NCBI GenBank assembly: GCA_038231275.1
Contig: JBBRLQ010000005.1
Location: forward strand, 32,001 to 96,000
Length of the DNA: 64,000 bases
From: Polyangiales bacterium
GTDB taxonomy: Bacteria > Myxococcota_A > Polyangia > Polyangiales > Polyangiaceae
Direction: 5' to 3'
Under the pieces are notes generated by a model. That model did no database searches. It was given only the letters and a program-made list of their open reading frames with translations, and was not told the DNA's origin. The translations under genes and the position numbers were made by a program. Below, piece after piece: positions 4,160-29,657 of this stretch (positions are counted from its first letter, which is position 1; each line of letters starts with the position of its first letter).

Positions 4160-4807
4160 CTAGAGACCGTCGTCCTTTGCGCCGTCGGTGATCCCGAGCT
4201 CGTCCTCGCGCGAGAAGAGGCAACACTCGCTCGCAGGCGGAAAATCGCGGCACGCGCCGGGGCGGTCCGCGTAAATCCCGCAGGTGTTGTCGCGGTGGAG
4301 GTGGTGGCAGCGCTTGTTCGCGCGCAGGGTGAGCACGACGCGGCCGTCCTTGCGACGCGACCACGGCGCGTGGAGGAGCTTCGCGAGCCCGGCGCGGCGG
4401 AAGCGCGCCACGTCCTTTTCGAGCAGGACGACCTCGTTGTCCTTGCAGCACGCGCCGCACGCGAGGCAATCGAGCGCGAGGGTCCGCGTCGCACCGGGAA
4501 AGATCGAGTCGCGCTCGGCGCGGCGGCGCACGATGTCGGTCGAGTCGTCGGGGATCCGCAAAAACGCGAGACCTCGGAGGGCGCCCTTTTGCGCGACGCC
4601 CCAGCGCTGCTTGCCGAGATCGAGCACCGACCAGAGGCCGAGATCGTTCACGTCTCCCCTCTTCGGCCGAGAAAAGACGAGCGTGGCTCGCTCGTGCGCG
4701 TCGAGGATTACGGCGTGCCCGCCGGCGCGGACGTGACGCGCGGCGTTCTCGGCGAAGCGCTCGGCGAACGCGCGGACGATGGGACGAACGAAGGTCGTGG
4801 CGGACAT
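4160..4807 (-). CDS. YkgJ-family cysteine-cluster (CxxCxxCC) protein
   Basis: CLACGACC ... RCHHL ... CGIYADRPGACRDF pattern. Confidence 0.8.
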   Translation of the reverse strand: MSATTFVRPIVRAFAERFAENAARHVRAGGHAVILDAHERATLVFSRPKRGDVNDLGLWSVLDLGKQRWGVAQKGALRGLAFLRIPDDSTDIVRRRAERDSIFPGATRTLALDCLACGACCKDNEVVLLEKDVARFRRAGLAKLLHAPWSRRKDGRVVLTLRANKRCHHLHRDNTCGIYADRPGACRDFPPASECCLFSREDELGITDGAKDDGL

Positions 4808-4839
4808 CGGTGCCGGACTCTAGTGGTACCCTCGCGCGT

Positions 4840-5826
4840 ATGAAAGCGATCGTCATCGCCGCGGCCGGAGGCCCCGAGCAGCTCGTCCTTCGCGAGGTTC
4901 CGACGCCTACGCCGAGCAGGGGCGAGGTGCGCGTGCGCGTCCACGCGAGCGCGATCAATCGCGCCGATCTCCTCCAGCGCATGGGCGTCTACCCCGCGCC
5001 GCCCGACGCGCCGCAGGACATCCCGGGCCTCGAGCTCGCGGGCGTCGTCGACGCGCTCGGCGACGGTGTCACGCGCCTCCGCGTGGGCGATCGCGTCTTC
5101 GGTCTCGTCGGCGGCGGCGCGTACGCCGAGCACGTGACGGCCCACGAGCGGACGCTCGCGAAGATTCCGGACGGCCTCTCCTTCACCGACGCCGCCGCGA
5201 TCCCCGAGGCGTTCATCACCGCATACGACGCGATGGTCACGCAGGCGCGCCTGGCCGCCGGAGAGACGGTCCTCGTGACCGCGGTGGGCAGCGGCGTGGG
5301 GACCGCCGCGGTGCAAATCGCGCGCGCGATCGGCGCGACCGCGATCGGCACCTCGCGCACCGCCGACAAGCTCGCCCTCGCCACGCCGCTCGGAATGCGC
5401 CACGGCGTCACCGTCGGCAAGGACGGAAAATTCGCCGACGCCGTACGAAAGCTCACCGGCGACACTGGCGTGGACGTCGTCCTCGAGCTCGTCGGCGGCG
5501 CCTACGTGGAAGAGGACATCGCCTGCCTCGCGCCCCGCGGCCGCCTCGTCCTCGTCGGCCTCCTCGCGGGCGTTCGCGCCGACGTCGACCTCGGCACCGT
5601 CCTCCGCCGTCGCCTCGAAGTGCACGGCACCGTCCTCCGCGCGCGCCCCCTCGAAGAAAAAATCCTCGCCGCGCGGACCTTCGAGCGAAACGTCGTCCCG
5701 CTCATCGCGTCCGGCGCGATGAAGGCGATCGTCGGCAAGACATTCCCCCTCTCCGAAGCCGCCGCCGCCCACGCCTACGTCGCCGGCAACGACGGGTTCG
5801 GCAAGGTCGTGTTGCGAGTTCCGTAG
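4840..5826 (+). CDS. NAD(P)H-quinone oxidoreductase, PIG3/zeta-crystallin (MDR) family
   Basis: MKAIVI, INRADLLQRMGVYP, PGLELAG, GGAYAE, IPEAFITAY, GSGVGTAAVQIA, GKVVL. Confidence 0.93.
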   Translation: MKAIVIAAAGGPEQLVLREVPTPTPSRGEVRVRVHASAINRADLLQRMGVYPAPPDAPQDIPGLELAGVVDALGDGVTRLRVGDRVFGLVGGGAYAEHVTAHERTLAKIPDGLSFTDAAAIPEAFITAYDAMVTQARLAAGETVLVTAVGSGVGTAAVQIARAIGATAIGTSRTADKLALATPLGMRHGVTVGKDGKFADAVRKLTGDTGVDVVLELVGGAYVEEDIACLAPRGRLVLVGLLAGVRADVDLGTVLRRRLEVHGTVLRARPLEEKILAARTFERNVVPLIASGAMKAIVGKTFPLSEAAAAHAYVAGNDGFGKVVLRVP

Positions 5827-5938
5827 GGTCGCTCCGGATCCTCCGTCGTGCCTCGCACGACGTCGCGAAGCGGACCGGGGGAGGACTCCGCGCGAAGCGT
5901 GGAGGGGACCGGAGGTCCCAACAAGACTCGTAAACGAC

Positions 5939-5967
5939 GGAGCCCGTCCCTTTCGGGGACGGGCTCC
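5939..5967. terminator. Probable bidirectional terminator hairpin between convergent genes
   Basis: Perfect 12-bp stem GGAGCCCGTCCC-tttcg-GGGACGGGCTCC abutting the stop of 5967..6758. Confidence 0.7.
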
Positions 5968-6758
5968 TAGTGGTTGCGGGCGTGCTCGAGGCACAAGTTC
6001 CGGAACGGCTTGCACTTGTCGCAGGTGCACTTGCGGATGTCGGCGCCGTCCTCTTCGAGCTGGCCGCATACGGCGCAAGTGCGGCCGCCGGTCGGCTTCG
6101 TCTCGACCTCCGCCATCGCGCCGCGGCGCGCAGCCTGGCGGACCTGGAGGTTTCGCCCTTTGACCATGCCCGCGAGGGTCCCGCCGAAGAAGAGGAAATA
6201 GTTGGCGAGCGCCGCCGTGATCGCCGCGCGATCGAACCAATCGCCGAGCACCGCCGTGTACACGACGTAGAGGCCCGCCAGGATCCCCAGCCACTTCACG
6301 CGAATGCTGAAGGGCACGAAGATGATCGGATTGAAGGGAAAATCCGGGTACAGCGTCGCGAACGCGAGGAGGCACGACATGTTCAGCCACGAGTTGCCGA
6401 CGGCGTGTCCGGTGATCCACGCGGCGATCGTCGTGCCGACCATCCCGAGAAAATAGAAGAGGTTGAACTTGAGCGGCCCCCACTCGCTCTCGAGGCTCGT
6501 CCCGATCGTCCACGCCCACGAGAGGGAGAAGATGATGAAGAGCAGGCTGTCGGTGCGCGGCAAGAACGCGTAGGTGACGAGGCGCCAGACCTGACCGCGC
6601 GCGACCTCGTGGAGATCGAGCGCGAGCAGCGACGCGTACTCGTGGTTCAATCGCGAGAGCACGAACACGATCGCCATCCCGCCGACGATGAACTGCGTCA
6701 GGTGCTCGATCGCGAATTTTCCGTAGCTGCGCTCGAGCTTCGCGAGGAACCGTTCCAC
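5967..6758 (-). CDS. Rhomboid/Derlin-like membrane protein with C-terminal Cys/His zinc-finger-like domain
   Basis: GQVWRLVTYAF (rhomboid WR motif), LESEWG..KFNLFY, about 6 TM segments; tail CAVCG...CTCDKC...CLEH. Confidence 0.72.
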   Translation of the reverse strand: MERFLAKLERSYGKFAIEHLTQFIVGGMAIVFVLSRLNHEYASLLALDLHEVARGQVWRLVTYAFLPRTDSLLFIIFSLSWAWTIGTSLESEWGPLKFNLFYFLGMVGTTIAAWITGHAVGNSWLNMSCLLAFATLYPDFPFNPIIFVPFSIRVKWLGILAGLYVVYTAVLGDWFDRAAITAALANYFLFFGGTLAGMVKGRNLQVRQAARRGAMAEVETKPTGGRTCAVCGQLEEDGADIRKCTCDKCKPFRNLCLEHARNH

Positions 6759-6823: not shown

Positions 6824-7399
6824 TCAAGGAGGTGAGCCGCACGTGAGCCAGAGCTTGATCTTCGCGAGATCGGCGGCCGAGACGTCGGGCGTCGGCGCGA
6901 GGGGCATGTGGTTGCCGCACGCGCCTGCCGCGCCCGTCGCGAGCAGGTTGCACGTGATCGCGCTTTGCGTCGGATCGCACGAGGTCGTGAGGTACGGCTT
7001 GCCGTTGATCTTGTAGGCCTTGAGCGCGGCCAACGTCGCCGTCGCATCGGTGAGGCCCGCCGGGCTGTTGCCGCCGGTCGCGTGACAGGCCGTGCCGTTC
7101 GCGCATTTGTACGTGCCGGCCGTGGCCATCAGCGCGGCATAGATGTCCGTCGCAAAGCTCGGGCATCCGGCGGCGTCCGGCGTGCATCCCGACGACGCGC
7201 CGCCGTCACCGCTCGTCCCGCTGCTTCCGCCCGAGTCCGGCGTCGGCGGGGCTTGATCGTCGGGACTGCGACCGGCGAGGCCCCCCGCGGGACCGAAGTG
7301 AGTGGGATCGTCGTTGCAGCCGCCGAACAGCGCGATGCCTGACAGGACGAGCGGCACGAGGACGAGCGCCACCGACTTCCGCTCCAGTCGCGAGGTCAT
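6824..7399 (-). CDS. Putative monoheme cytochrome c lipoprotein with CX5CH motif
   Basis: Start MTSRLE at 7399; lipobox FGGC; CANGTACH; downstream HMP (candidate axial ligand) and LAKIKLWL..G, as in planctomycete-type cytochrome domains. Confidence 0.62.
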   Translation of the reverse strand: MTSRLERKSVALVLVPLVLSGIALFGGCNDDPTHFGPAGGLAGRSPDDQAPPTPDSGGSSGTSGDGGASSGCTPDAAGCPSFATDIYAALMATAGTYKCANGTACHATGGNSPAGLTDATATLAALKAYKINGKPYLTTSCDPTQSAITCNLLATGAAGACGNHMPLAPTPDVSAADLAKIKLWLTCGSPP

Positions 7400-7616
7400 G
7401 GTCCTATTGTGAAAGGCCGACCCCCGATCGCGCAACGACCTTTGCTGCGAATGCGCCTGCACGACGACGGCGTGGTCCAGGTGGTTCGTCGAAGATCCAC
7501 CGGATGGCTCCATCGCGGAGGCTCGTGTATCCTCAAGCCTCGGCAACATCGCGCCGTCGCACCGCCACGATCGTGGGTGCGTTTGATGCATCGACCGCCT
7601 CCGGGAGAACACCGCC

Positions 7617-7829
7617 ATGCTGGGACGCCTGCTCCTCCTCCTCGCCGTCGCATCCACCCTCGCCACCACCGCGTGCGTGAAGGTCGCCCCCTACGAGCGC
7701 GGCATGCTCGCGCATCCGACGATGACCACCGACGACGTCACCACGGGGCTCGACGAGCACGTTCGCGGCGTCTCCGAAGGGGCCGCGGGCGGCCTCGGTG
7801 GCGGCGGCGGGGGTTGTGGCTGCAACTGA
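7617..7829 (+). CDS. DUF4266 small lipoprotein
   Basis: Lipobox TTAC; V.PYERG.LA.P.M...EH....EGAAGG.GGGGGGCGCN terminus characteristic of DUF4266; GGAG RBS upstream. Confidence 0.9.
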   Translation: MLGRLLLLLAVASTLATTACVKVAPYERGMLAHPTMTTDDVTTGLDEHVRGVSEGAAGGLGGGGGGCGCN

Positions 7830-7868
7830 TCGGGCTCACCCGCTGGCAAAGTTCTGTATCGTAACCGC

Positions 7869-10118
7869 GTGGGTTACGTGGAAAGGGTCACGAGCCGTTT
7901 GCCGTCGACGCTCCGTGCCGTTCTAGCGCTGCTCATGGGCCTCGCCTTCGTCGTCGCGTCTCCCCGCGCGTGGGCGGCGGCCGAGGACGCGCGCCTGCTC
8001 GACTCCATCAACCAGGCGATGGCGGACGACTACCCGGGCAACCTCGGCGAGGCCAAGCGCAAGGTCAACGAGGCGCTCGAGAAATGCAAAGGAGGCCGCT
8101 GCGGCAACTCGGCGAAGGCGCAGGGGTTCGTCGCGCTCGGCATGATCACCTCGCAGCTGGGCGACGAGGCGGCCGCGAAGGCCGCGTTCGCCGACGCGCT
8201 CCGCTCCGACCCGCGCGTGAAGCTCCCGTCGAGCGGCACCACGCCGAACATCAAGAACCAGTGGGCCGAGGCCGTCTCACAGGCCGCGCCTCCTCCTGCT
8301 GCCCCTGCGCCCGCCGACGAACCGCCCGCCCCCGTCCCCGAGCCTCCGGCCGCGCCCGCCGCGCCCGCCGCGGGCAGCACGCTTCCGCCCGGGTGGAAGA
8401 GCCGCGAGGCCTTCGATCTCGCGACCGCCGCCGTGAAGGCGCTCGGCGCCGGGCAGTTCGAGGAGTGCGTCGAGAAGAACCGCGGCTCGCTCGAGCGCGA
8501 AGATCGCCCACGCACGCGCCTCGTCATCTCGCGCTGCGAAGAGAAGGTCGGCAGGTACCTCGACGCGCTCAAGGACGCGCAGAAGGCCCTCGAGCTCGGC
8601 ATCAAGACGCGCGACGCCGAGCTCATTCGCTTCGCGCGCCCGCGCGTCGAGGACCTCATCAAGAAGATGCCGCACGTGACCTTCGCCGTCCCCGCGAACG
8701 TCACGATCGCCGAGGTGAAGTTCGACGATCGCAACGTGCCCCTCGACGCGCTCACCAAGAAGTTCTCGATCGATCCGGGCAAGCACCACGTCGCGTCCAA
8801 CGGCCTCGCCGCCGGCGTTCCCGGCGCGATGCAGGACGACTACGACGTGAAGGAGGGCGAGCTCCTCACCGTCCGCCTCGGCCTCCAGCCGCAGCCGGGC
8901 GCGATCACGAAGGGCCAGCTCGACTGCCTCCTCAAGGCGAAGAACGACGAAGAGATCAAGAAGTGCGTCGAGAAGAGCGGCAAGAGCGTCGTGGTGAAGG
9001 CGGCGATCGAGACGAGCGCCTACGCCGACACGAACCACGTCTACGTCTTCTCGCCCGAGCTCATCGCGTCGGTCGTCTCGCCGACCGCCGGCTGGAACAT
9101 CGGCGCCAGCTACCTGCTCGACGTGATCACCGCCGCATCGCCCGACATCGTCTCGGAGGCCTCGCATCGCTTCAAAGAGAAGCGCAACGCGGCGACGCTC
9201 GGCGGCGGGTACAAACCCGGCCAGTTCGGCGTCACCGTCGGCGGGGACATCTCGATCGAGCCCGACTACGTGTCGCGCGGCGTGAGCGCGGCGGTCACCG
9301 GCGATTTCCGCGAGAAGCTCATCACCCCGCGACTCGGCGTGCACTACGCGCACGACACCATCGGCCGCGGCGGCGGCGCGACGACGCCCGGCGCGCCCAC
9401 GCCGTTCGACCATTACTCGAAGACGCTCGACAACACGCAGTTCGACGCCGGCGTCACCTGGGTCTTGTCTCCGACGGCGGTGCTCGTCACGAGCTCGTCG
9501 TTGACGCTCGAGCGCGGTGATCAGAGCAAGCCCTACCGCTATGTGCCGATGTTCGATCCGGTCACCGCCGGCAGGGTGAGGAGTGGGGAAACGGTCGATC
9601 TCGTCAACCGCTTCCGCCTTCCGATTCGCCCGCTCGAGCAGCTCCCGACGGAGCGCAACCGCTACGCCCTCGGCGTGCGCGTCGTAAAGCGCTTAGGCAA
9701 CGCAACCCTACGCATAGAAGAGCGGCTCTACACCGACAGCTGGGCGACCAAGGCCAGCACGACCGACGCGCGGTACATGATGGACCTTTCGCGCCACTTC
9801 CGCGTCTGGCCGCACCTTCGCCTGCACGCGCAGACCGGGACCGATTTCTACAACCGCGCGTACACCGCGATCGTCGATCCTGGCACGCTCGCGATCACGC
9901 TGCCCACGTACCGCACCGGCGACCGTGAGCTCGCGGCGCTCATCACCGCGACCGTGGGCGGAGGCACGCGAATCGCGCTAACCTCTCCAGAGGCGGCCGT
10001 GCAGCTCGCGGTCCTGGTGTCGGGTGACTTCATGTACTCGCGGTTCCTCAACTCGCTCTTCGTGACGACCCGCTCTGCGGTGTACGGTACGGTCGGCTTC
10101 GAAGCGGAGTTCGAGTGA
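7869..10118 (+). CDS. TPR/PEGA-like N-terminal region fused to a DUF3570-like outer-membrane beta-barrel
   Basis: Signal peptide (AWA); TPR-like helices, Pro-rich linker, PEGA-like IDPGKH segment; C-terminal half has YADT, DVITAASPD, EPDYVSR, KPYRYV, LEQLPTERNR, RLYTDSW and alternating beta-strands ending FEAEFE; directly follows DUF4266. Confidence 0.8.
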   Translation: MGYVERVTSRLPSTLRAVLALLMGLAFVVASPRAWAAAEDARLLDSINQAMADDYPGNLGEAKRKVNEALEKCKGGRCGNSAKAQGFVALGMITSQLGDEAAAKAAFADALRSDPRVKLPSSGTTPNIKNQWAEAVSQAAPPPAAPAPADEPPAPVPEPPAAPAAPAAGSTLPPGWKSREAFDLATAAVKALGAGQFEECVEKNRGSLEREDRPRTRLVISRCEEKVGRYLDALKDAQKALELGIKTRDAELIRFARPRVEDLIKKMPHVTFAVPANVTIAEVKFDDRNVPLDALTKKFSIDPGKHHVASNGLAAGVPGAMQDDYDVKEGELLTVRLGLQPQPGAITKGQLDCLLKAKNDEEIKKCVEKSGKSVVVKAAIETSAYADTNHVYVFSPELIASVVSPTAGWNIGASYLLDVITAASPDIVSEASHRFKEKRNAATLGGGYKPGQFGVTVGGDISIEPDYVSRGVSAAVTGDFREKLITPRLGVHYAHDTIGRGGGATTPGAPTPFDHYSKTLDNTQFDAGVTWVLSPTAVLVTSSSLTLERGDQSKPYRYVPMFDPVTAGRVRSGETVDLVNRFRLPIRPLEQLPTERNRYALGVRVVKRLGNATLRIEERLYTDSWATKASTTDARYMMDLSRHFRVWPHLRLHAQTGTDFYNRAYTAIVDPGTLAITLPTYRTGDRELAALITATVGGGTRIALTSPEAAVQLAVLVSGDFMYSRFLNSLFVTTRSAVYGTVGFEAEFE

Positions 10119-10687
10119 TGGCACGCACCATCCTCTGGGTCCCCACGAGCGCGTACGCGATCGCGTTCGCCGTGGCGATCGGATCGTGCGCCGATCCCGT
10201 TCATGATCTCCAAGTGAAGGCGCTTGGCGGCGAGGCGCCGAACATCCCCACCGGCGAGTACCACCGCGCCGGCCAGCCCTGCACGACGTGCCACAGCCAG
10301 TACGGGCCCGCGACCTCGCAGTTCGCGATCGGCGGCACCATCTTCCACGGCCCCGACAAGGCCATCGGCGAAGAGGGCGTGCGCGTCGAGATGGTCGACG
10401 CGACAGGCTCGCAGCGCAACGCGACCACCAACTGCGTCGGCAACTTCTTCATCCCGACGTCGGACTGGGATCCGGCGTTCCCGGTGCTCGTCATGATCCG
10501 AAAAGGTCAGCAGACACGGTCGATGAACAGCCACATCGGGCGCGAGGCGTCGTGCAACCAGTGCCACAAGGACCCGCCGAGCTTCGATTCGCCGGGCCAC
10601 ATGTCGCTCGTCGCGGTCGAGGACAACGCGCCGCCGCCGCAGGATTGCCCTGTGAGCCCCGTCGCGACCCTCCCGGGGTCCAGATGA
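10115..10687 (+). CDS. Diheme c-type cytochrome lipoprotein with a central Ig/carboxypeptidase-regulatory-like insert
   Basis: Lipobox IGSC; HRAGQPCTTCH and ASCNQCH motifs; overlaps the upstream stop. Confidence 0.8.
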   Translation: MMARTILWVPTSAYAIAFAVAIGSCADPVHDLQVKALGGEAPNIPTGEYHRAGQPCTTCHSQYGPATSQFAIGGTIFHGPDKAIGEEGVRVEMVDATGSQRNATTNCVGNFFIPTSDWDPAFPVLVMIRKGQQTRSMNSHIGREASCNQCHKDPPSFDSPGHMSLVAVEDNAPPPQDCPVSPVATLPGSR

Positions 10688-11265
10688 AGATCCTCGCGCA
10701 GAGACCGGTGGACAAGGGCCGCGTCGCCGCCGCCGCGATCGTGGTGGGCATCTTCGCCGCGGCCGCGTGCGTGTCGGTCCCGGACACCGAGCGCATGACG
10801 TACGTGGGGCCGCTCCCCAATGGGCAGACCGTGGCGCCGGACTTCGCCTCGTACAAGACCGGCGTGGACCCGTACCTCGGCAAGCGCTGCTCGACGCTCG
10901 ACTGCCACGGGCAGCTCGGTCGCGGCCTTCGCCTCTTCAGCCAGCAGGGCCTCCGCGCGTTCGACGCGTCGGGCAACGGATCCTTTCCGCTCACGAGCGG
11001 CAAGGACGCGATCACCGACGACGAGGTGCGGCAGAACTTCCTCGCCGTCGTCGGCCTCGAGCCAGAGGTCATGACGCAGGTGATGGCGGGCGGCGGCGCC
11101 GATCCGTTGAAGCTCCTCCTCCTCAAGAAGCCGCTCCTCTACGAGGGCCACAAGGGCGGACAGGTGATGATCGACACCTCCGACCCCGGCTACAAGTGCA
11201 TCGCGAGCTGGCTGGCGGGCTCGCTCGACACCAACGCGTGCACCAAGTCGCTCGAAGTGCGCTGA
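10684..11265 (+). CDS. Putative monoheme cytochrome lipoprotein with CX4CH motif
   Basis: ATG 10684 (ATGA overlap); lipobox AAAC; RCSTLDCHG; distal LLKKP...HKGG and IASWL. Confidence 0.68.
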   Translation: MKILAQRPVDKGRVAAAAIVVGIFAAAACVSVPDTERMTYVGPLPNGQTVAPDFASYKTGVDPYLGKRCSTLDCHGQLGRGLRLFSQQGLRAFDASGNGSFPLTSGKDAITDDEVRQNFLAVVGLEPEVMTQVMAGGGADPLKLLLLKKPLLYEGHKGGQVMIDTSDPGYKCIASWLAGSLDTNACTKSLEVR

Positions 11266-11280
11266 CGCAAAGCGTACGAC

Positions 11281-11325
11281 AAAAGAGAAACGCCCCGGGC
11301 GAGCTCGTCGCGCCGGGGCGTCGCT
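11281..11325 (-). terminator. Rho-independent terminator for the minus-strand operon (possibly bidirectional)
   Basis: Stem ACGCCCCGG (11290-11298) / CCGGGGCGT (11313-11321), followed on the minus strand by TTCTCTTTT. Confidence 0.7.
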
Positions 11326-11341
11326 TCGTCTGCGTGCCGCC

Positions 11342-12736
11342 TCAGGTCACGACCGCGTTGACGAGGCCGGGGAACGCGGGACCGCGGTAGAAGTCCTGCA
11401 CGCGGCGGAGATCGCCCTTCGCGACGGCGAACGCGGCAGCGGCGGCGGCCGTGGGGCCCATCGACGCGGTCGTGATGGTGTTGCCGTTGGTCGCGACGTT
11501 GTTGCCGGTCTGCGGGTCGAACGTGTTGACGCTGTTGTTCGCGCCGTACGATCCGAACCACCCCGTCTTGAGGTAGCCGGCGCCGTAGACGTAGAGCCAG
11601 TTGGCGTTGCCGTTCGTGTTGTCGGGCCAGCCGCTGCGCTCGAGCGGATCCTTCGGGAGATCTCCGCCGATCGTCATGACGAGGTTGTCGGCCAGGCTCT
11701 TCGAAGAGCAGCCCGGGTCCGGCGTCGCGAGCGCCATGGTCATGAACGCGTCGAAGTGCTTGCCGAGCGCCATGGCCATGTCCGCCGGCATCTGATCGCC
11801 GCCGCCGAACGCGCCGTGCGGATCGTCCAAAAATGGGCTCATGTTGACCATCGACGTCAACCCGAGCTTGAACGCCTTCAGCGCCGTGATGAGCGTGTGC
11901 GCATGGTCCTTCAGCGCCGTCGAGGTGCCGGCGTTGACGCCGAATGCTGCGTCGTCCGCCGCCGTGGGGGCGAGCTGCGCCGCGAGGTTCTTGCCGAGGA
12001 GGTTCGCGGCGATTTTGCCGGTCTCGTAGCCCTTCGCGACCGACGGGCGGCCGGCGGCGGCGTTGAGGCCGAGGAACGCCTTGTAATACGCCTCGTGCAG
12101 CGCCGCGTTGCTCGGCGTGCTCAGGAGCGTCTTGCTCGCGACGCTGTCGAACAGGCCGACGAGGCCCGCCGCGCTGCCGACGCTGGCCATCGACGGAGCG
12201 CCGGGCGCGGTGCCGTAGATGGTCGGGTTGATGGCGATGACGGGGAGGAGCGTCGGCGTCGCCTGCTGAATCGCGGCGAGCGCGGCGAGGAGGCCCACGC
12301 CGGTCGCGATCTCGTGCTTGGGCGTGTTGGTGTGGCCGCCGTTGTTGCCGCCCATGAGGCCGGTCATCTGTCGGTTGCCGGGGAGCGTCGCGAACGGCGA
12401 GTAGGTGCCGCGCACCCACGGGCGATCGGTGCCCGTGACCGCCTTGCCCTTGCCGATCTCGTAAAACGCGTAGTTCGCTTGCGTCCCGGTGGCCTGCTCT
12501 ACGTGCGGGAAGAGCAGCGTGTACCAGGAGAGCGCGCCGTTGCCGGCGTTGATGTGGATCGAGCGGTTCGTGAGGGTGCACGCCGCTTGATCGGCGAGCG
12601 CGCTGCCTCCGATGCCCGAGAGCGCGTCGATGAAGCGCACGCGCTCGAGGCCGAGCCCGACCGCCGCCGCCGCGCTCCACCGGATGAAGTCTCGTCGGCC
12701 CGAGCCGCGCAGATCTTTGAGTCGCTGGTCCGCCAT
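11342..12736 (-). CDS. Tat-exported DUF1501/DUF1552-like protein
   Basis: Start MADQRL at 12736 with AGGAG RBS; twin-arginine motif GRRDFI; DDPHG, LADNLVMTIGGD, GAGYLKTG resemble DUF1501 C-terminal motifs; lies downstream of a DUF1588/1585-like gene, the usual context. Confidence 0.6.
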   Translation of the reverse strand: MADQRLKDLRGSGRRDFIRWSAAAAVGLGLERVRFIDALSGIGGSALADQAACTLTNRSIHINAGNGALSWYTLLFPHVEQATGTQANYAFYEIGKGKAVTGTDRPWVRGTYSPFATLPGNRQMTGLMGGNNGGHTNTPKHEIATGVGLLAALAAIQQATPTLLPVIAINPTIYGTAPGAPSMASVGSAAGLVGLFDSVASKTLLSTPSNAALHEAYYKAFLGLNAAAGRPSVAKGYETGKIAANLLGKNLAAQLAPTAADDAAFGVNAGTSTALKDHAHTLITALKAFKLGLTSMVNMSPFLDDPHGAFGGGDQMPADMAMALGKHFDAFMTMALATPDPGCSSKSLADNLVMTIGGDLPKDPLERSGWPDNTNGNANWLYVYGAGYLKTGWFGSYGANNSVNTFDPQTGNNVATNGNTITTASMGPTAAAAAAFAVAKGDLRRVQDFYRGPAFPGLVNAVVT

Positions 12737-12747
12737 GACGATTCTCC

Positions 12748-13440
12748 TTACTCGCAGGTGTGAGCGGCTTCGAGGAGCGCCGCGATGGCAAGTTGAACGC
12801 CCTGGGCCTGGGTCGCCCCGCCCGTGACGGCGTCGACGACGGCCTGGTTCGCGACGGTGACGTGGTCGTCGGTCGCCAGCGTCCCCGTGAGGCACGAAAT
12901 CCCGTCCTTCGTGAACTTCCCGCTCGCGTCGGCGACGATCACGCCCTGGCAGCCCGTGGACGTCGCCGCGTTGGCGAAGACCTCGGGCGCCGCCGCCACG
13001 AAGATGTCGAACTGCTTCGCGAGCGCGCTCGTCGACGCGAGGAGCGCCTCGGGCGCGCGGCCCGAGTAGTTCGCGACGCCGAGCGACGAGCCGCTCGACT
13101 TGTAGATCGTGAGCGCGTTCGTGTTGCCGGTGAGCTTCGCGCCGCGCGTGTTCAGGATGGACCCGAGCGACGCGTACGTGATCTTCGTGCAGCCGTGGTA
13201 CCGCGCCGCCGTTACGCCGCCGGTGGGATCCGACGCCTTCGGTCGGCCGCCCGGATCGGCGTGCTCGTACTCGCCGACTTGGTTCGGCGGGTCGAAATCG
13301 TGGTGGTACATCGGCGACGAGCCCTGCGTGTCGGCCTCGGTCGCGCTGCCGATCTTGTCGTTGGGTCCGCTGCCGGCGGCCGAGCACCCGCTGGCGGCGA
13401 GGCCGGCGGTGGCGATGAGGGTCAGAAGAATGCGTTTCAT
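12748..13440 (-). CDS. Hypothetical lipoprotein with paired cysteines
   Basis: MKRILL...ASGC lipobox; GGAG RBS; ends AAHTCE. Confidence 0.75.
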   Translation of the reverse strand: MKRILLTLIATAGLAASGCSAAGSGPNDKIGSATEADTQGSSPMYHHDFDPPNQVGEYEHADPGGRPKASDPTGGVTAARYHGCTKITYASLGSILNTRGAKLTGNTNALTIYKSSGSSLGVANYSGRAPEALLASTSALAKQFDIFVAAAPEVFANAATSTGCQGVIVADASGKFTKDGISCLTGTLATDDHVTVANQAVVDAVTGGATQAQGVQLAIAALLEAAHTCE

Positions 13441-13459
13441 TGGAGTCTCCTTTTCCCTC

Positions 13460-14713
13460 TCAGAATTTCGTGAAGTCTTCGGACGTGAACACGTTACGGA
13501 TGACGCGCTTCAGCTTCATCCCGTTGCCCGTGAAGTCTTTCACGAGAGGATCGGTGACGGCAGGCGGAATCGACGCGAGGTCGTTCACGATGTCGCCGCG
13601 CGAGAGCGCCCAGTTCCAGACGCGGTCGACGGCGCAGTGGGCCACGGCGGGGTCGGCGGCGATCGCCGCGCCGAGCGACGGAATGTCGGTCACCGCGACG
13701 CCGTTGCGCCACGCGAACGTCTGCTTGCCGGCGGGGAGCCAGTCGCCGAGGACCGAGGTGGGGTTGCCGGTCGACGGCGTCTTCACCTGGATGGCGGTCT
13801 GGTACGCGCCGTTCGCGTCGAAGAACGCGAACATCGGCGCCATGTGGTTGATCGTCGTGTGGCAGTTGGCGCAGATGATCGAGCTCGTGTCCTGGAAGTC
13901 GATTTTCGCGTTCGGCGTGTTCGTCTTTCCGGTGACGGTCTGGAAATCCCAGGGGCTCGTGTAGAGGCCGGCGCCCATCGGCGTCGACGCGCCGAGCTCG
14001 GCGGGGAACTTCGTGCAGGCGAAGGTCTCCTGGATGAAGCGGACGCGGCGGAAGGCCATGTTCGCGTAGAACTGCGACATGAGGCCGGGGTCGGTGAGGA
14101 CGCCGGCGGTGGGCGCCGTGCCCGGACAGCTCGCGGGGGTGAAGGTGCCGCCCGCGTACGTCGGGCAGGTGTTCGTCGCCGTCGTGAAGAGGTCGGTGTA
14201 CGGCTGGTCGTTGATGACGACCATCGCCGCGAACGTCGCCGCGGTGTCGTAGCTCGGCGCGCCTTGCCTCGCGTTGCCGCCCATCGGGCCGGTGCGGAAC
14301 GTGTCGCGGAACCACTGGATCATGCGCGTCGCGAAGCGCGGGTCGCTCGTGAGGATCTTGTCGATGTACGCCTCGTAGGTGACCTTCTGGTCGGCCTGCG
14401 CCTTGCCGTCGAGCGTCTTCACGTCCGCGAGCGTCGGGAGCTCGCCCGTGAGCTTGAGGCTCGCGCTGCGCATCGCCGCGCCGTAGTCGAACACGCGGGT
14501 GTCGACGTACGCGGGGGGCTGCTCGACGGGCCCGCCAGAAGCGCCGCCACCGCCGCCGCCGCCGCCTGCGCCACCACTGGAGCCCGGGTCACCGGAGGTG
14601 CCGCCGTTGCCGAGCGCGTTCGGGTCGTCGGACCCCGAGCCGCACGCCATCAGCGATGCCGCGATGCCGAGCGCGGCGAGCTTCGCGCTGAGTCGCAGAA
14701 TGCTTCGTCGCAT
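13460..14713 (-). CDS. DUF1588/DUF1585-like CxxCH cytochrome lipoprotein
   Basis: Lipobox LMAC; Gly linker; SLKLTGELPT, ETFAC, ICANCHTTINHMAP.F..FD..G, LKRVIRNVFTSEDF. Alternative start near 14755. Confidence 0.7.
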   Translation of the reverse strand: MRRSILRLSAKLAALGIAASLMACGSGSDDPNALGNGGTSGDPGSSGGAGGGGGGGGASGGPVEQPPAYVDTRVFDYGAAMRSASLKLTGELPTLADVKTLDGKAQADQKVTYEAYIDKILTSDPRFATRMIQWFRDTFRTGPMGGNARQGAPSYDTAATFAAMVVINDQPYTDLFTTATNTCPTYAGGTFTPASCPGTAPTAGVLTDPGLMSQFYANMAFRRVRFIQETFACTKFPAELGASTPMGAGLYTSPWDFQTVTGKTNTPNAKIDFQDTSSIICANCHTTINHMAPMFAFFDANGAYQTAIQVKTPSTGNPTSVLGDWLPAGKQTFAWRNGVAVTDIPSLGAAIAADPAVAHCAVDRVWNWALSRGDIVNDLASIPPAVTDPLVKDFTGNGMKLKRVIRNVFTSEDFTKF

Positions 14714-14763
14714 CGTGTGCCTGCCTTTCTGTTCCGCGTGCCGTTCCATGGCCATTGTCTCTT

Positions 14764-16029
14764 TCATTCGCCGGCGAGCCAGCTGTTGATCTGCGCGGTG
14801 TAGCCACCCACGTCGCTGACGGTGCCGCCGCCGTGGTTTCCGCTCTGCCCCGTCGGGTGCAGGATGATGGCGCTCTTGGTCTTGTCGGTAAGGTTCACCT
14901 TCGTAAGCGCCTGGGCGCACGCCGAGGCGTAGTTGGGGGAGCCCCCCACGAGATCGTTCAAGTCGAGCGCGCCGTCGCCGCCGCCGCCGGCCTTGTGGCA
15001 GCCGGCCGTGCAGTTCGGCGTGAGCGCGTTGCCGTTCACCTGGCCGCCGCGGAACACGTCGGCGATCGCCTGGAAGCCCGACACGTTCTTGCAGCCGCCG
15101 CCGCCCGCGCCCGCGTCGCCGCCCGCGACGGTGCCCGCGCCGATCTTGGCGAACTCGATCTGGAGCTTGTCGGTCGCCTGCCAGTTGAAGCCGGTGAGGA
15201 TGAACGTGCCGGGGCCGACGGCGATCGACTTGCCTGCGCCAGCGGTGTCGTCGACGTTCGAGCCGTTGTCGGCCGGATCCTCGACCGCCTTCGCCGTGGC
15301 GTCGGCGGGGACCTGCACGAAGATCGGGTGCGTGATGTGGATGCCGCCCGCCGCGGGCCCGACCAGCTTCACCGAGCTGAGCGCGAGGATCTTGCCGGAG
15401 ATGGTCGCGTTGAACGTGATCTGCGCGCCGGGAATGCCGCCGGAGACCGTGCTCAGATCGATCGCGTTGGCTGCGCCGCCGACGATCGCGATCGGCGCCG
15501 TCGCCGGGAGCTTCGCGCCCTTCAGCGCGGCCGCTTCGACGTCGAGCCACTTCTTGACCTTGTCGCCGAGGTTGCCGGTGCCGTCGGGAGTGACGAGCGC
15601 CGCGCCCGTGTGCTGGCCCTTCGTGAAGAGGCGGCTCTGGAGCGTGTCCTGAACGATGATCTTCTTGTCGCCGACCTGTGACGTGTCGTACGTCTTGATC
15701 GAGAGGTACGTGTCCGGCCCCTTGAGCCAGAGCGGCGCCGAGGTGCTGCCCTCGTGGCAGTTGGACCCGCCGCACGACGTCTTGAGGTCCGGCTCGAGCT
15801 CGCGGTACAGCTTCTCGGCGAGCTTGAGCGCCGTCGCATTGCCGCCGTCGGGATCGAGGAGGCTGCCGTCGCCGGGATCGACCGTTCCACTGTCGACCGC
15901 GCCGCTCGACCCGCCGCCGCCGTTGCCGCCGAGGAGGCTGTCGGCCGCTCCGTCTCCGCACGCGACCGCCGTGACTGCCGCGAGAGCGATCGCGCCGGTG
16001 AGAAGGGCGAACGCACGCGACGCGAGCAT
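14764..16029 (-). CDS. Putative diheme lipoprotein with CX4CH and CX3CH motifs
   Basis: Lipobox AVAC; SCGGSNCH...GQHTG...KKWL and NCTAGCH...GNHGGG...NSWL, two similar domains separated by a beta-rich insert. Start may be 16068. Confidence 0.68.
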   Translation of the reverse strand: MLASRAFALLTGAIALAAVTAVACGDGAADSLLGGNGGGGSSGAVDSGTVDPGDGSLLDPDGGNATALKLAEKLYRELEPDLKTSCGGSNCHEGSTSAPLWLKGPDTYLSIKTYDTSQVGDKKIIVQDTLQSRLFTKGQHTGAALVTPDGTGNLGDKVKKWLDVEAAALKGAKLPATAPIAIVGGAANAIDLSTVSGGIPGAQITFNATISGKILALSSVKLVGPAAGGIHITHPIFVQVPADATAKAVEDPADNGSNVDDTAGAGKSIAVGPGTFILTGFNWQATDKLQIEFAKIGAGTVAGGDAGAGGGGCKNVSGFQAIADVFRGGQVNGNALTPNCTAGCHKAGGGGDGALDLNDLVGGSPNYASACAQALTKVNLTDKTKSAIILHPTGQSGNHGGGTVSDVGGYTAQINSWLAGE

Positions 16030-16390: not shown

Positions 16391-17383
16391 GTGGGGGTTG
16401 AAGCAAGCGTCGTGGACCAGCCGGAGCCTCCCAAGATCGTGCTCGAGCAGCCGGCGCCGTGCCTGGACGGACGCGCCGCGCAGGAGGTGCTCGTCCGCAC
16501 GCTCGCGCCGAGTCAGGCGCCGGGCGCGGCATGGACGGTGAGCGCGCGCGTGAGGAGAGATCGCACCGCGCTCGTCGCCGAAGGTGAGATCACCGACAGC
16601 GTCGGCGCGGCGGTCGCCCATCGCTCCATTCGCAAAGACACGACCGAGTGCAGCGGCGTCGTGCGCGCGCTCGGCGTGTGGGCGTCGCTGGTGCTCGACG
16701 AGGAAGTGCGTCGCGCCGCTGCGCCTCCGCCTCCTCCTCCTCCCGAGCCCGAGACGAGAGCGCCGTGGCCGTCGCCCGAGCCGCCCGCGGCGGCGGCGCC
16801 CGAGCAAGCGCTCTTCCTCAAGAACCCGAAAGACAGGCGCTCGTTCGAGATCGGGATGGGGACCAGCTACCAGTATGGCCTGCTCGGCGACGGCGGCGCC
16901 GCCATCGGCGGCGGTCACGTGTTCACGGTCTTCGAGATCGACGGCGGGTGGTTCCTTCGTCCGACGATCGCGGCTGGGCGATCGCTGCGCGACGTTGCGG
17001 CGTCGTCCGATCTGAGCGCGACATGGGGCGCGGCGCGCTTCGACGCGTGCCGGCGGATGCCTGGAAACTACACGGAACGTCGCGGCATCCAGATGGACGT
17101 GTGCGGCGGCATCGAGAGCGGCCTTCTCGCGTTCGACTCCGGCGGCAACGGCCGGAGCCCGACGGCGGGTCAGGTGCAAAAGGACGTGACGCCGCTGCTC
17201 GCTCCTGGCGCGTCGCTGGGCCTTCGCGGCGAGCTTGCGAGCGATCTCTCCGCCGAGGTGCGTGGCCTCGTCGGCGTCAATCTTCTGCGCGATACGTTTT
17301 ACGAGAGCCCCGACGGCGTGAAGCTCCAGACCTTGCTCGTGTACGCGCGCCTCGAGCTCGCAGTTTCGTGGAGGGTGCGGTGA
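16391..17383 (+). CDS. Hypothetical protein with Pro-rich linker and C-terminal beta-barrel-like domain
   Basis: Alternating beta-strand pattern ending ARLELAVSWRVR; overlaps the ECF sigma start; start codon uncertain. Confidence 0.6.
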   Translation: MGVEASVVDQPEPPKIVLEQPAPCLDGRAAQEVLVRTLAPSQAPGAAWTVSARVRRDRTALVAEGEITDSVGAAVAHRSIRKDTTECSGVVRALGVWASLVLDEEVRRAAAPPPPPPPEPETRAPWPSPEPPAAAAPEQALFLKNPKDRRSFEIGMGTSYQYGLLGDGGAAIGGGHVFTVFEIDGGWFLRPTIAAGRSLRDVAASSDLSATWGAARFDACRRMPGNYTERRGIQMDVCGGIESGLLAFDSGGNGRSPTAGQVQKDVTPLLAPGASLGLRGELASDLSAEVRGLVGVNLLRDTFYESPDGVKLQTLLVYARLELAVSWRVR

Positions 17384-17970
17384 TCGAAGATACCGGCGCT
17401 GTCGAGCGCACGTCGATTACGTCGGTTCCCGCCGTGGCGCCGAACGCCGCGTCGCGCGAGTCGATCTTCCGCTCGATGTACGAGGCCCACGTCGACTTCG
17501 TGTGGCGAAATTTGCGGCGCCTCGGCGTCGAGCTCGGCGACGTCGACGACAAGACACAAGAGGTCTTCGTCATCGCGCACCGCCGGTTCGTCGAGTTCGA
17601 GGATCGCGGCCACGGTCCGCGCGCGTGGCTCTTCCAGATCGTCATCCGCGTCGCGTCCGACGCGCGCCGCCACAAGCGCCGCCACCCTGAGGATCCCGAC
17701 AGCGGCAAGCTCCTCGAGCGCGAGTCGATCGAGCCGCCGCAAACGCAGGCCCTCGCGCGCCGCGAAGCGCTCGAGCGCCTGGACCGCGCGCTCGGCACCC
17801 TCGAGGTCGGCCGCCGCGCCGTCCTGGTCCTCCACGAGATCGAAGAAATGACCGCACCGGAAATCGCGCAGAGCCTCGGAATTCCCCTCAACACCGTTTA
17901 CTCGCGCCTCCGCGTGGCGCGCGCCGAGCTCGAAGCGGCGCTGTCCCGCCAGGAAGGAGCCTCACGATGA
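17380..17970 (+). CDS. ECF sigma-70 family sigma factor
   Basis: GTG 17380; FVWRNLRRLGV, DDKTQEVF, RAWLFQI (region 2); LVLHEIEEMTAPEIA..LGIPLNTVYSRLRVAR (region 4). Confidence 0.93.
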   Translation: MIEDTGAVERTSITSVPAVAPNAASRESIFRSMYEAHVDFVWRNLRRLGVELGDVDDKTQEVFVIAHRRFVEFEDRGHGPRAWLFQIVIRVASDARRHKRRHPEDPDSGKLLERESIEPPQTQALARREALERLDRALGTLEVGRRAVLVLHEIEEMTAPEIAQSLGIPLNTVYSRLRVARAELEAALSRQEGASR

Positions 17971-18740
17971 GCGATCTCTCGACGAGCACCCGCGCCCTTT
18001 TGGACGCCGCGAAAGCGGACGGACCGTCCAAGCTGGCGAAGGCGAAAATCTGGGGAGGCGTGGCGGCGACGACGGCGGCGGCGGCCGGGGGCGGAGCCGC
18101 GGCAGGGAGCGTGGCGGCGTTCGGCTCGGGCAAGCTGCTGATGTTCGGCGCGCTGTTCGGGAGCGCGGTGACGGTCGGTCTCGCGATGGCGCTGATGCAC
18201 GTGGGTCCGATGTCGCCGGAGATCACCGAGCCGCGCGCGGACATGCAGCTCGCGACGCCGCGGCCGGTGCGGGATCCGGCGGCGCCGGCGCAGCCGATTC
18301 GTGCGGGTGGGCCGCAGGACGATCTCACCGTGGAGCAAGACGACGCGCCCGTGGCGACGCCGGTGGGGAACGCCAACGCAGGCGCAAACGCAGCGCCGAA
18401 GGCGGCGCCGGCGGTGGTCGTGAATCCGGCGCAGGGTGCGGCGGCGTCGAAGGCAAAGGCCGCGACCGCGAAGGCGGCGAGGACCGCGGCGGAGAAGGAC
18501 GATCTGCTCGAGCGCGAGTCGCTCCTCGTGTCCGAAGCGCGCGGGGCGCTGGTTCGTGGAGATGCGCGCGCGGCGTTGTCAGCGGTCCACGCGGCGCAGG
18601 CGCTCGACAGCCACGCGCTCGACCCGGAAGAGCTGTCGCTCGAAGCGCGCGCGCTGCGTGCGATGGGAAGCACGGACGCGGCGGACGCGGTCGAATCGCG
18701 CTTGCGGACGCGTTACCCCGATCACGCGCTCGCGCGCTGA
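17967..18740 (+). CDS. Putative membrane-anchored anti-sigma factor with C-terminal TPR-like module
   Basis: ATGA overlap with the sigma gene; short N-terminus, TM segment, Ala/Pro linker, LERESLLVSEARGALVRGDARAAL...RYPD tail. Confidence 0.7.
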   Translation: MSDLSTSTRALLDAAKADGPSKLAKAKIWGGVAATTAAAAGGGAAAGSVAAFGSGKLLMFGALFGSAVTVGLAMALMHVGPMSPEITEPRADMQLATPRPVRDPAAPAQPIRAGGPQDDLTVEQDDAPVATPVGNANAGANAAPKAAPAVVVNPAQGAAASKAKAATAKAARTAAEKDDLLERESLLVSEARGALVRGDARAALSAVHAAQALDSHALDPEELSLEARALRAMGSTDAADAVESRLRTRYPDHALAR

Positions 18741-19053: not shown

Positions 19054-20295
19054 CTACTGCCCGCCGTCGATCTTCCCCCGCAAAATCCTCGCGGCCTCCC
19101 GGTACGCCGGCCGATCCGGAAACAGCAGCGCCAGCTGGTCGTACGCCAGCGCCGCGCGCTCGTATTGCCCATTCGCGACGAAGTCGACCGCTTGCCGCTC
19201 CAGCGTGCGCTGCGTCCCGTTCGTCGTCGTCGGAAGCGCCGTGACCGACGCGGGCGGCAGAGGAACGCTCGGCAGCGACGAAAGGCTGATCGTCGGAGGC
19301 ACAGTCGCCGATGGGACCGCGCTCGCGGCGTCGTTCATCGTCATCGCGCTCGGCACAGCCGCGCCCCCATCGACGATCGCGACGGGTGTAGCCACGGGCA
19401 CCTCCTCGTCGTCCGCGATGAAGAGGAAGTAAAGCGACACGAGCAACGCCGGCAGCAGCGCGACGAGGATCTTCTTCGGCCCCGTCAGCTCGTCCCACTT
19501 TTGCTTGATCAGCTCGAGCTGCGGGTTTTGTATGCGGTTCGTCTGCACCGTCGGCGCTTGCGTCGAGCGCACCGGCGAGGCTCCCGGCAACGGACCGGAC
19601 GGCGGTGCGCGTCGCGTTCCGAACGGCGTCGGGACCACGAGGCCCGGCTGGCGCGTCGTCTCGCCGAGCTCCGGCGGCAAGGGAACGGGCGCGCCCTTCG
19701 CCATGCGCTGCGTTTGATCGAACGGTGGCCTTAGCAAATGCGCGGGCGTGGGGATTTCCTCCAACGGCGGACCCGGCGGCGGGGGAGGGGGCAGCGGAGG
19801 AAGCGGAAGATTTCCCCCCCGTGCGCTCATCGGCGACGGCGCGTCGAGCGGCTGCACGCGCGTCGACTCGCTCTCGGGCCGCCGCGCGAACGCGCCGGGC
19901 TTGAACGGCCGCGCGATCTGCGGCGCCGGACGATCCACGACCGCGGTCGCCTGATCGTCCAGATCCGGCTCTTCGGTGTACGTCGCTCGAAAATGAAGCC
20001 GCGCCGAGCCCATCTCGATTTTGCAGGGCGGCGACACGCTCGTCCACGTGCGCCCGATCGGCTGCCCGTGCGCGATCACAGGACTCCGTTCATCCACGCT
20101 CTGGAGAAAGAACCGCTTACCGTCGAAATACACGTAGCCGTGCACGTCGAGGATGCCGCTGCCCTCGATGCGCCACATGCCGCGCTTGCCGACGCTCATC
20201 GGTGAGAGCACCTGGCCGCGTGGTATCGCGATGAACGGCGGATCGGCGATGCCGATCTCCACCTCCACCACGAGCTCCTCCGACGGATCAGCCAT
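19054..20295 (-). CDS. Degenerate FHA-like domain, Pro-rich linker, TM segment and TPR-like tail (Tad-associated)
   Basis: SVGKRGMWRIEGSGILDVHG...IEMGSARLHF; TM segment ILVALLPALLVSLYFLFI; GQYERAALAY tail; overlaps the cpaF stop. Confidence 0.65.
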   Translation of the reverse strand: MADPSEELVVEVEIGIADPPFIAIPRGQVLSPMSVGKRGMWRIEGSGILDVHGYVYFDGKRFFLQSVDERSPVIAHGQPIGRTWTSVSPPCKIEMGSARLHFRATYTEEPDLDDQATAVVDRPAPQIARPFKPGAFARRPESESTRVQPLDAPSPMSARGGNLPLPPLPPPPPPGPPLEEIPTPAHLLRPPFDQTQRMAKGAPVPLPPELGETTRQPGLVVPTPFGTRRAPPSGPLPGASPVRSTQAPTVQTNRIQNPQLELIKQKWDELTGPKKILVALLPALLVSLYFLFIADDEEVPVATPVAIVDGGAAVPSAMTMNDAASAVPSATVPPTISLSSLPSVPLPPASVTALPTTTNGTQRTLERQAVDFVANGQYERAALAYDQLALLFPDRPAYREAARILRGKIDGGQ

Positions 20296-22916: not shown

Positions 22917-22920
22917 GGCG

Positions 22921-24704: not shown

Positions 24705-26458
<1,754 letters not shown>

Positions 26459-29645: not shown

Positions 29646-29657
29646 GGGGCTGACCTC

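Follow-up and report, generated by a model that had tools for sequence, protein, structure and literature searches.

Positions 6824-16029 of a 64-kb stretch of Polyangiales bacterium DNA (64,000 nucleotides, hereafter the window) are filled by nine genes, named A to I here, which lie in two convergent blocks with A divergent from B. In related loci, the part of this region that is conserved comprises fewer than nine genes, namely the triad C-D-E, which encodes a DUF3570 protein and two lipoproteins with haem motifs; lipoprotein A and the DUF4266 protein B are frequent, although not universal, partners of the triad. We lean towards the view that the triad is an outer-membrane-associated electron-transfer module, in which the predicted haems of lipoproteins D, E, and A accompany a DUF3570 barrel without flavin sites. 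An earlier interpretation of the same DNA (the sequence-only reading) had proposed a haem-based variant of the DUF3570/DUF4266 system that joins a second module in one nine-gene system. The first of these proposals is a fair reading of B-C-D-E plus A, which we regard as a haem-partnered variant with a function predicted from sequence, and the second was not supported in the form proposed.

Because the region is ∼70% G+C, third-position GC and frame analysis, followed by translation, were used to call genes across the window. As had been claimed, the nine genes are contiguous and encode exported proteins: export signals can be read directly from all nine translations, and lipobox-type N termini are present in A, B, D, E, G, H, and I. 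The genes are listed below.

A, 6824-7399, reverse strand: 191-residue lipoprotein with one CXnCH motif (CANGTACH) and 9 Cys
B, 7617-7829, forward strand: 70-residue DUF4266 lipoprotein with a C-terminal CGCN (CXC) tail
C, 7869-10118, forward strand: 749-residue exported protein with an N-terminal TPR-like/Cys-rich region and a DUF3570 domain, presumed outer-membrane β-barrel
D, 10115-10687, forward strand: 190-residue lipoprotein, candidate dihaem c-type cytochrome (CTTCH, CNQCH)
E, 10684-11265, forward strand: 193-residue lipoprotein with C-x3-D-C-H (Cx4CH) and HKGG motifs
F, 11342-12736, reverse strand: 464-residue protein with a twin-arginine motif, from an unnamed family that is DUF1501-like at the fold level only
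G, 12748-13440, reverse strand: 230-residue lipoprotein of no family, with four conserved Cys
H, 13460-14713, reverse strand: 417-residue lipoprotein cytochrome of the PSCyt type (CANCH)
I, 14764-16029, reverse strand: 421-residue lipoprotein with two haem motifs, comprising an A-like N-terminal domain, a middle region, and an E-like C-terminal domain

The window copies of A, E, F, G, and I match no Pfam family, and an NCBIfam scan of the proteins gave nothing beyond Pfam. When C, D, E, F, H, and I were compared with PDB sequences by profile search, just weak TPR and marginal haem-motif matches were returned. A promoter and terminator scan detected no signal above shuffled controls.

C, D, and E are inherited and duplicated together

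In a scan of one genome per species, 195 matches were confirmed, and the best 80 loci were kept for comparison. Nearly all of these are labeled Polyangiales or Myxococcales, and one is from Labilithrix luteola DSM 27648 (L035), whose D ortholog is named AKJ09_01142 by the source. When the window proteins were used as tblastn queries, C was found in all 80 loci, D in 77, and E in 74; the 3 loci lacking D and the 6 lacking E all end at a contig boundary, and both proteins are present wherever the sequence reaches (77/77 and 74/74, respectively). The corresponding counts for the other proteins are 53 for A, 58 for B, 28 for F, 24 each for G and H, and 20 for I, with 42 for a rhomboid protease encoded upstream of A.

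The genes of the triad overlap, as the sequence-only reading had noted for the barrel gene and the two genes downstream of it. On the DNA, the stop codon of C and the start of D share GAGTGATGG, in which D may start at GTG 10115 or ATG 10118, and D and E share ATGA. Overlaps of −4 or −1 nt are found between C and D in 30 loci and between D and E in 49 of 74.

A tree of the barrel domain separates the loci into four types and two long-branch outliers (L071 and L079).

Type 1: window-like clade, 62 loci, with A in reverse orientation followed by B, C, D, and E in forward orientation
Type 2: 9 loci, with A, C, D, and E in forward orientation and no B, then a different conserved gene set
Type 3: 3 loci, with a shorter N terminus
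Type 4: 4 loci, with a short barrel of ∼420 residues, and with B

The four types are paralogs, because 9 of 70 assemblies hold two or three of them. Trees of D and of E reproduce the four types of the barrel with 3 label changes, which is the minimum possible, and this match across paralogs indicates that C, D, and E were duplicated and kept together. Such co-duplication is the strongest evidence here that C, D, and E act as one unit; along with translational coupling, it also suggests that D and E dock on C. The sequence-only reading proposed a check of whether relatives keep the nine-gene order, and would have counted a failure of the two convergent operons to occur together against itself. 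Linkage is strict for C-D-E only, and the operons occur together in part of the loci, so that this objection is half borne out. As far as the available collections show, this variant of the triad is restricted to Polyangia-type Myxococcota.

The type 2 loci (L053, L054, L056, L058, L060, L062, L063, L067, and L069) have their own gene set downstream of E, which encodes two tandem I-like haem-motif lipoproteins (cluster 18), a 588-residue MYXO-CTERM protein (cluster 23), and members of the unnamed clusters 24, 25, and 31. The tandem lipoproteins are homologous to the N-terminal domain of I (hhalign 97.9%, E 3.3e-13), and the core is accompanied in these loci by an accessory module distinct from F-G-H-I. 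A protein encoded upstream of the type 3 loci (cluster 86) was considered as a homolog of A and rejected, as only its lipoprotein N terminus aligned.

F-G-H-I is a separate module with facultative linkage to the core

The alternative that all nine genes form one integrated outer-membrane system, obligately joining a DUF3570/DUF4266 module to a PSCyt/DUF1501-like one, can be judged from the distribution of the second operon. In its favor, F lies within the 10-kb flank in 23 of 37 judgeable loci of the window-like clade, at a distance from E that is usually 80-830 bp; all four genes of the operon are found next to the core of L071, in a different arrangement; and I shares domains with both A and E. 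However, among all 55 judgeable loci F-G-H-I is within 10 kb of the core in only 24, with F adjacent in 16, upstream in 1 (L071), and separated from the core by an insert of 2.8-8.3 kb in 7; F is absent from the other 31. Considering the core flanks only, 17 of 18 loci of the other paralog types are without F, and its pattern on the barrel tree requires at least eight gains or losses. An obligate nine-gene system is unlikely on this evidence, and we conclude that F-G-H-I is a separate module whose linkage to the core is facultative and which is dispensable for the core.

F carries the twin-arginine motif RRDFIR, and Pfam returns TAT_signal for 12 of 12 F proteins, below threshold in the window copy and at the cut-off in 1 of 11 orthologs. 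The likeness to DUF1501 that the sequence-only reading assigned to F was not recovered by Pfam, as DUF1501 (PF07394) was detected in none of 12 F proteins (the window copy and 11 orthologs) at E ≤ 1. The family has at least 734 relatives, and all 120 of those listed are named "hypothetical" and have no Pfam domain other than TAT_signal. What remains of the claim is a possible resemblance to the sulfatase/phosphatase-like fold of DUF1501. In a comparison that used a stored atlas model of the homolog P0210, and not F of the window itself, the model gave a TM of 0.67 to a DUF1501 cluster and of 0.54 to DUF1552; P0210 also has a feature score of 0.96 to a cluster in which 45% of members carry DUF1501. 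The modeled likeness is thus a fold-level lead rather than family membership, and a profile search against PDB sequences gave no match for F.

G, which was seen only together with F and H (24 loci), has the conserved residues C84, C164, C183, C229, H82, and H193. H belongs to the PSCyt type: its PSCyt2/DUF1549 match scores 31.3 bits against a Pfam cut-off of 29.8, its CANCH motif is kept in 21 of 21 orthologs, and DUF1588 (PSCyt3), DUF1585 (PSD2), and DUF1553 (PSD1) are matched below their cut-offs. The N-terminal domain of I is homologous to A (hhalign 95.2%, E 2.6e-8), and its C-terminal domain has weak similarity to E (hhalign 43.6%, E 2.4e-4, 95 columns). Because I is built from A-like and E-like domains, F-G-H-I is still linked in theme to the core. 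We take F-G-H to be an optional enzyme module attached through I, and electrons probably pass between F-G-H-I and the core by way of I.

C is a DUF3570 protein with a Cys-rich N-terminal region

The assignments of B to DUF4266 and of C to DUF3570 in the sequence-only reading were both confirmed by Pfam. B matches DUF4266 (PF14086) at 57.5 bits (cut-off 27, E 2.6e-15), and its gene lies 39 bp upstream of C in the same orientation. The GCGCN tail is kept in 58 of 58 orthologs, in agreement with the Cys tail described for B. B occurs in type 1 and type 4 loci and in none of the 9 type 2 loci, 3 type 3 loci, or 2 outliers, so DUF4266 is not essential to the C-D-E triad.

C is a true DUF3570 protein (PF12094, 87.2 bits against a cut-off of 25, residues 432-697). 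It has a Sec signal ending in AWA, a TPR-like/Cys-rich region at about residues 35-370, and a DUF3570 domain at about residues 380-749. The N-terminal region gives weak TPR matches, as had been suggested, and contains six invariant Cys residues (C73, C78, C200, C223, C353, and C366). A PEGA domain, also suggested, was detected neither in window C nor in the precomputed Pfam annotation of the 120 homologs listed. The family comprises 331 homologs, which are TPR plus DUF3570 proteins of ∼730 residues, with PF12094 in all 120 listed. In the type 4 loci, a separate gene downstream of E encodes the N-terminal TPR/Cx4C module (hhalign 96.3%), which indicates that the long C of the window is a fusion of two parts that belong together.

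We infer that C adopts a barrel fold in the outer membrane from its family membership, from an aromatic residue in the last or penultimate position of 73 of 75 complete orthologs, from ∼17 amphipathic β-like segments (a crude estimate), and from the insolubility reported for the Chlorobium luteolum DUF3570 protein ABB24424.1 (Méheust et al. 2021, eLife, PMC8238504).

Such a barrel could also be a transport channel, for iron or another metal for example, with the lipoprotein cytochromes acting as reductases, in the periplasm or at the surface, that prepare its substrate for metal assimilation and not for respiration or an electron relay. Few haems would suit short-range reduction, and the CXC tail of B and the Cys pairs of C could bind metal; flavinylated systems have in addition been tied to iron reduction and uptake, with a VIT1 transporter in 25 DUF3570 clusters (PMC8238504). 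Nevertheless, no transporter, TonB-box protein, or metal-binding family is found among the recurrent neighbors, and we consider a dedicated metal role doubtful. It overlaps with electron transfer by the triad instead of excluding it.

The barrel lacks flavinylation motifs and a neighboring apbE gene

In the published system, DUF3570 is encoded with DsbD, a thioredoxin-like protein, a DUF4266 protein with a CXC tail, and ApbE, which flavinylates DUF3570 at two [S/T]GA[S/T] motifs (PMC8238504). This motif is absent from window C and from 54 of 76 orthologs, and 21 of the others have at most one. It is also absent from 117 of 149 wider relatives; these came from a short-barrel search with 1031 relatives, the best 150 of which, as listed, did not reach the canonical flavinylated proteins. 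Some relatives carry the motif at three sites of the alignment (about residues 407, 572, and 656 of window C), where window C has AGWN, SGET, and TGTD, the sites being defined by these motif-bearing relatives and not by experimentally proven flavinylation.

The sequence-only reading had stated that neither ApbE nor TlpA is encoded next to the locus. By Pfam, neither ApbE (PF02424) nor a TlpA domain was found in the 56 proteins of the window (the nine and 47 others), and neither a thioredoxin-like protein nor DsbD is encoded in its 64 kb. For the 10-kb flanks of the 80 loci, ApbE was not found among 36 recurrent neighbor clusters and 179 further neighbor representatives of 200-480 residues, in a scan that relied on crude gene calling and took a single representative from each cluster. 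The lack of TlpA is less general, as in a few related loci TlpA-like and DsbD genes lie beside the core: DsbD in L028, L031, and L036, and a ResA/TlpA-like protein in L031, L036, and L080.

In L031 (13188-16415) and L036 (6248-9322), A is accompanied by a ResA/TlpA-like thioredoxin, a 108-residue protein with two Cys (cluster 48), and a DsbD-type protein, and in L036 all four genes are on one strand directly upstream of B. The cluster 48 protein could be a detached N-terminal domain of DsbD.

Alternatively, the barrel could retain its flavins, attached by an ApbE from elsewhere in the genome, with D, E, and A as additional partners and not as replacements for flavin. Most family members share an xGA[S/T] sequence at one position of the alignment, some relatives have TGAS or SGAS at two further positions, and the short type 4 barrels have SGAS and KGAS, yet are also accompanied by D and E. 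ApbE need not adjoin its target gene, and 316 clusters without DsbD have been noted (PMC8238504). Against retained flavinylation, window C has no [S/T]GA[S/T] at all, the three aligned sites have diverged as given above, and, within the limits of gene calling, there is no ApbE within 10 kb in the 80 loci. These observations make retained flavinylation of the window barrel unlikely.

Haem motifs are conserved in the lipoproteins that accompany the barrel

The sequence-only reading counted seven C..CH motifs in five lipoproteins. All seven are present in the window proteins, but only three are canonical CxxCH (CTTCH and CNQCH in D and CANCH in H); the other four are Cx5CH in A, Cx4CH in E, and Cx4CH and Cx3CH in I. 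The motifs are kept in every ortholog examined (D 75/75, E 74/74, A 53/53, H 21/21, and I 21/21), which is far above chance.

D has two CxxCH sites in all 75 complete copies, and its invariant residues (H50, C56, C59, H60, M137, C147, C150, and H151) include two candidate axial ligands, H50 and M137, so that its sequence has the features of a c-type cytochrome that would bind haem. Its Pfam matches to cytochrome c7/c3 are below threshold, and its 559 relatives are without any Pfam domain. In E, the motif is C-x3-D-C-H and occurs together with an invariant HKGG; the invariant residues are C29, C69, D73, C74, H75, G76, H156, K157, G158, G159, C172, W176, and C186. No Pfam relative of E was found, nor a PDB relative in a profile search against PDB sequences.

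The spacer in A is 4 residues in 39 orthologs, 5 in 11, and 2 in 3, around the invariant residues C99, C105, H106, M165, P166, W184, and C187. No Pfam family was detected at E ≤ 1 in the window copy of A or in 12 orthologs. Among the 21 orthologs of I, the spacer of the first motif is 3 (14 proteins), 6 (3), 4 (2), or 2 (2), and that of the second is 2 (15), 4 (4), or 3 (2), such that the canonical form is the majority; sub-threshold Cytochrome_CBB3 matches cover the second motif in 9 of 13 proteins. Spacers that vary in length within an invariant Cys...Cys-His, together with canonical members at the same aligned site, point to haem sites whose loop length has drifted. These observations argue for the wider-spaced motifs of A, E, and I as putative haem sites, with covalent binding of haem predicted most cautiously where the spacers are wider. 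We take A/I-type haem-motif lipoproteins to be recurrent partners of the core. Three unnamed protein families, annotated as hypothetical at present, are defined by D, by E, and by the A/I domain.

That A, E, and I instead have disulfide or metal sites at their C(x3-6)CH motifs, with D and H as the only cytochromes in what is chiefly a thiol-disulfide relay, is improbable: A, E, and I are all Cys-rich and match no cytochrome family at Pfam thresholds, and B (CXC), C (six invariant Cys), and the DsbD/TlpA-like neighbors are thiol-based, but a His follows the second Cys without exception, a candidate distal ligand is invariant in each domain (M165 in A, H156 in E, and H140 and H399 in I), and canonical CxxCH occupies the same aligned site in 3 of 53 A proteins, in 2 and 15 of 21 I proteins at the first and second motif, and at least once in 17 of 17 cluster 18 copies (twice in 16).

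A model for the triad

The functional unit would be a lineage-specific envelope redox module centered on the co-inherited C, D, and E. C would be a DUF3570 presumed outer-membrane barrel fused to a Cys-rich, TPR-like periplasmic domain, whereas D would bring two c-type haem sites and E one Cx4CH site, both as lipoproteins. In the window, the triad appears to be joined by the CXC-tailed DUF4266 lipoprotein B and by the divergently transcribed haem-motif lipoprotein A. It could then be the haem-partnered, ApbE-less counterpart of the DsbD/thioredoxin-like/DUF4266/flavinylated-DUF3570 system, in which redox centers on small lipoprotein cytochromes docked at the barrel would replace the two covalent flavins of the canonical barrel. 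Electrons would be relayed between carriers in the periplasm and a site located at the outer membrane or beyond it, and the CXC tail of B and the six invariant Cys of C may be remnants or parts of a thiol input. F-G-H-I, often alongside the core, would contribute a PSCyt-type cytochrome, a Tat-exported enzyme with a DUF1501-like fold, and two lipoproteins. The model presumes physical docking, a direction of electron flow, and a physiological substrate.

Several observations weigh against this model. The three or four haems, placed on separate small proteins, would be few for a path across an outer membrane, and it is chemically awkward for a thiol donor (the CXC of B or the Cys pairs of C) to pass electrons to one-electron haems when no flavin is present. 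The spacers are non-canonical in four of the seven window motifs. An xGA[S/T] sequence is present at the position of about residue 572 of window C in ∼57 of 77 aligned rows, although window C itself reads SGET there, and because this position is so widely conserved many relatives could be flavinylated by a distant ApbE. DsbD and ResA-like genes also serve cytochrome c maturation, which makes their presence beside cytochrome genes ambiguous. B is missing from the type 2 and type 3 loci, and F-G-H-I from 31 of the 55 judgeable loci. Part of the synteny reflects shared ancestry, since the loci come from one order-level lineage in which rhomboid, alcohol dehydrogenase, and CxxCxxCC genes are also kept. 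Finally, the support is at the level of genes and sequences.

A more far-reaching version of the electron-transfer model would make C, with docked D (two haems) and E (one haem), a new minimal trans-outer-membrane conduit in which lipoprotein haems replace two covalent flavins, with three or four specialized paralogous conduits per Polyangia genome, each having its own A/I-type surface cytochromes and enzymes (DUF1501-like). We regard this version as speculative and probably not correct in full.

Relation to known systems

The window resembles the system of Méheust et al. in that a DUF3570 gene (87 bits) and a CXC-tailed DUF4266 gene are adjacent and co-oriented; some of the related Polyangia loci also have DsbD and TlpA/ResA-like genes beside the core. 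It differs in that no ApbE gene is nearby and the barrel is without [S/T]GA[S/T], in the extension of the barrel by a Cys-rich TPR-like domain of ∼370 residues, and in the dispensability of DUF4266 in two paralog types. Two translationally coupled genes for haem-motif lipoproteins are always present here and are not among the typical members given in the accessible parts of that paper, where an interchange of flavins and cytochromes is argued for other systems (PMC8238504).

Modules of DUF1501 with PSCyt1, PSCyt2, and PSD1 are present in Planctomycetes and Verrucomicrobia, and a role in electron transfer has been proposed for them (Kamneva et al. 2012, PMC3542564). The second operon is similar in combining a Tat-motif protein (F) with a lipoprotein that has a cytochrome c motif and scores above the PSCyt2 cut-off (H). 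Unlike these modules, however, F fails the DUF1501 Pfam model and is like it in fold through a homolog only, H is without PSCyt1 and has its other PS domains below threshold, the operon includes the extra lipoproteins G and I, and the host is a member of the Myxococcota.

In porin-cytochrome conduits (MtrCAB and Geobacter Pcc), deca- or octahaem proteins are threaded through a 26-strand barrel. The locus shares with them the encoding of a predicted outer-membrane barrel next to predicted lipoprotein or periplasmic c-type cytochromes, but here two, one, and one haem sites are on separate lipoproteins of ∼190 residues, well short of 8-10 haems, and the barrel family is unrelated. Profile searches detected no relation to the solved Mtr chains or to another solved structure.

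Both component systems are in print as uncharacterized modules. In the accessible parts of the literature on DUF3570/DUF4266, DUF1501/PSCyt, and Myxococcota porin-cytochromes, no cytochrome-linked DUF3570 variant or C-D-E triad is described. DUF3570/DUF4266 and DUF1501/PSCyt proteins are both extracytosolic redox systems, and this locus family has hundreds of members, strictly co-inherited partners, and several paralogs per genome. It offers a natural experiment, as haem proteins accompany a barrel that lost its flavin sites, and it makes two questions directly testable: the role of the barrel and the interchangeability of flavin and haem at the outer membrane. L. luteola DSM 27648 (NZ_CP012333.1), a cultured and fully sequenced host, provides a tractable route to the function of DUF3570.

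Genes flanking the locus

Upstream of A, positions 4160-6758 encode a rhomboid protease, a Zn-dependent alcohol dehydrogenase, and a CxxCxxCC-domain protein. This set is kept upstream of A in many loci, with the rhomboid at a distance of ≤2.6 kb in 40 of 63, and its conservation spans sub-clades that differ in the genes further upstream. A role for the rhomboid as a dedicated protease for processing B was considered and rejected, as B has no GlyGly-CTERM-type transmembrane tail and the rhomboid matches are weak and generic; we treat the rhomboid as conserved synteny. In related loci, a true DUF1552 (HXXSHH) protein is encoded upstream of the core in L046 (3931-5310, forward strand) and a thioredoxin-reductase-like Pyr_redox_2 protein downstream of the core in L050 (8471-9439, forward strand).

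After gene I, positions 16391-18740 (forward strand) encode U1 (330 residues), an extracytoplasmic function (ECF) sigma factor, and a 257-residue anti-sigma-like protein with one hydrophobic segment (U2). By tblastn, 13 of the related loci have U1, 11 have the sigma factor, and 7 have U2. Because U1 and the sigma factor stay close to the core in three loci without F-G-H-I (L024, L029, and L045), the sigma factor may regulate the barrel operon and not F-I.

Further along the window, a Tad/Flp-type pilus cluster occupies 19054-33363 (reverse strand), with two T2SSE ATPases (one with an FHA domain), two T2SSF proteins, a secretin, RcpC/CpaB, a TPR protein, a prepilin peptidase, and several unnamed genes interspersed. 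Two proteins of 814 residues (50542-52986, reverse strand) and 344 residues (49361-50395, reverse strand) have a good coding signal and no Pfam family at E ≤ 1e-4. A lipid-modification cluster at 41665-47331 (forward strand) encodes an amine oxidase-like flavoprotein, a DUF1365 protein, a cyclopropane-fatty-acid synthase, a short-chain dehydrogenase, a SnoaL-like protein, and a DUF2878 protein.

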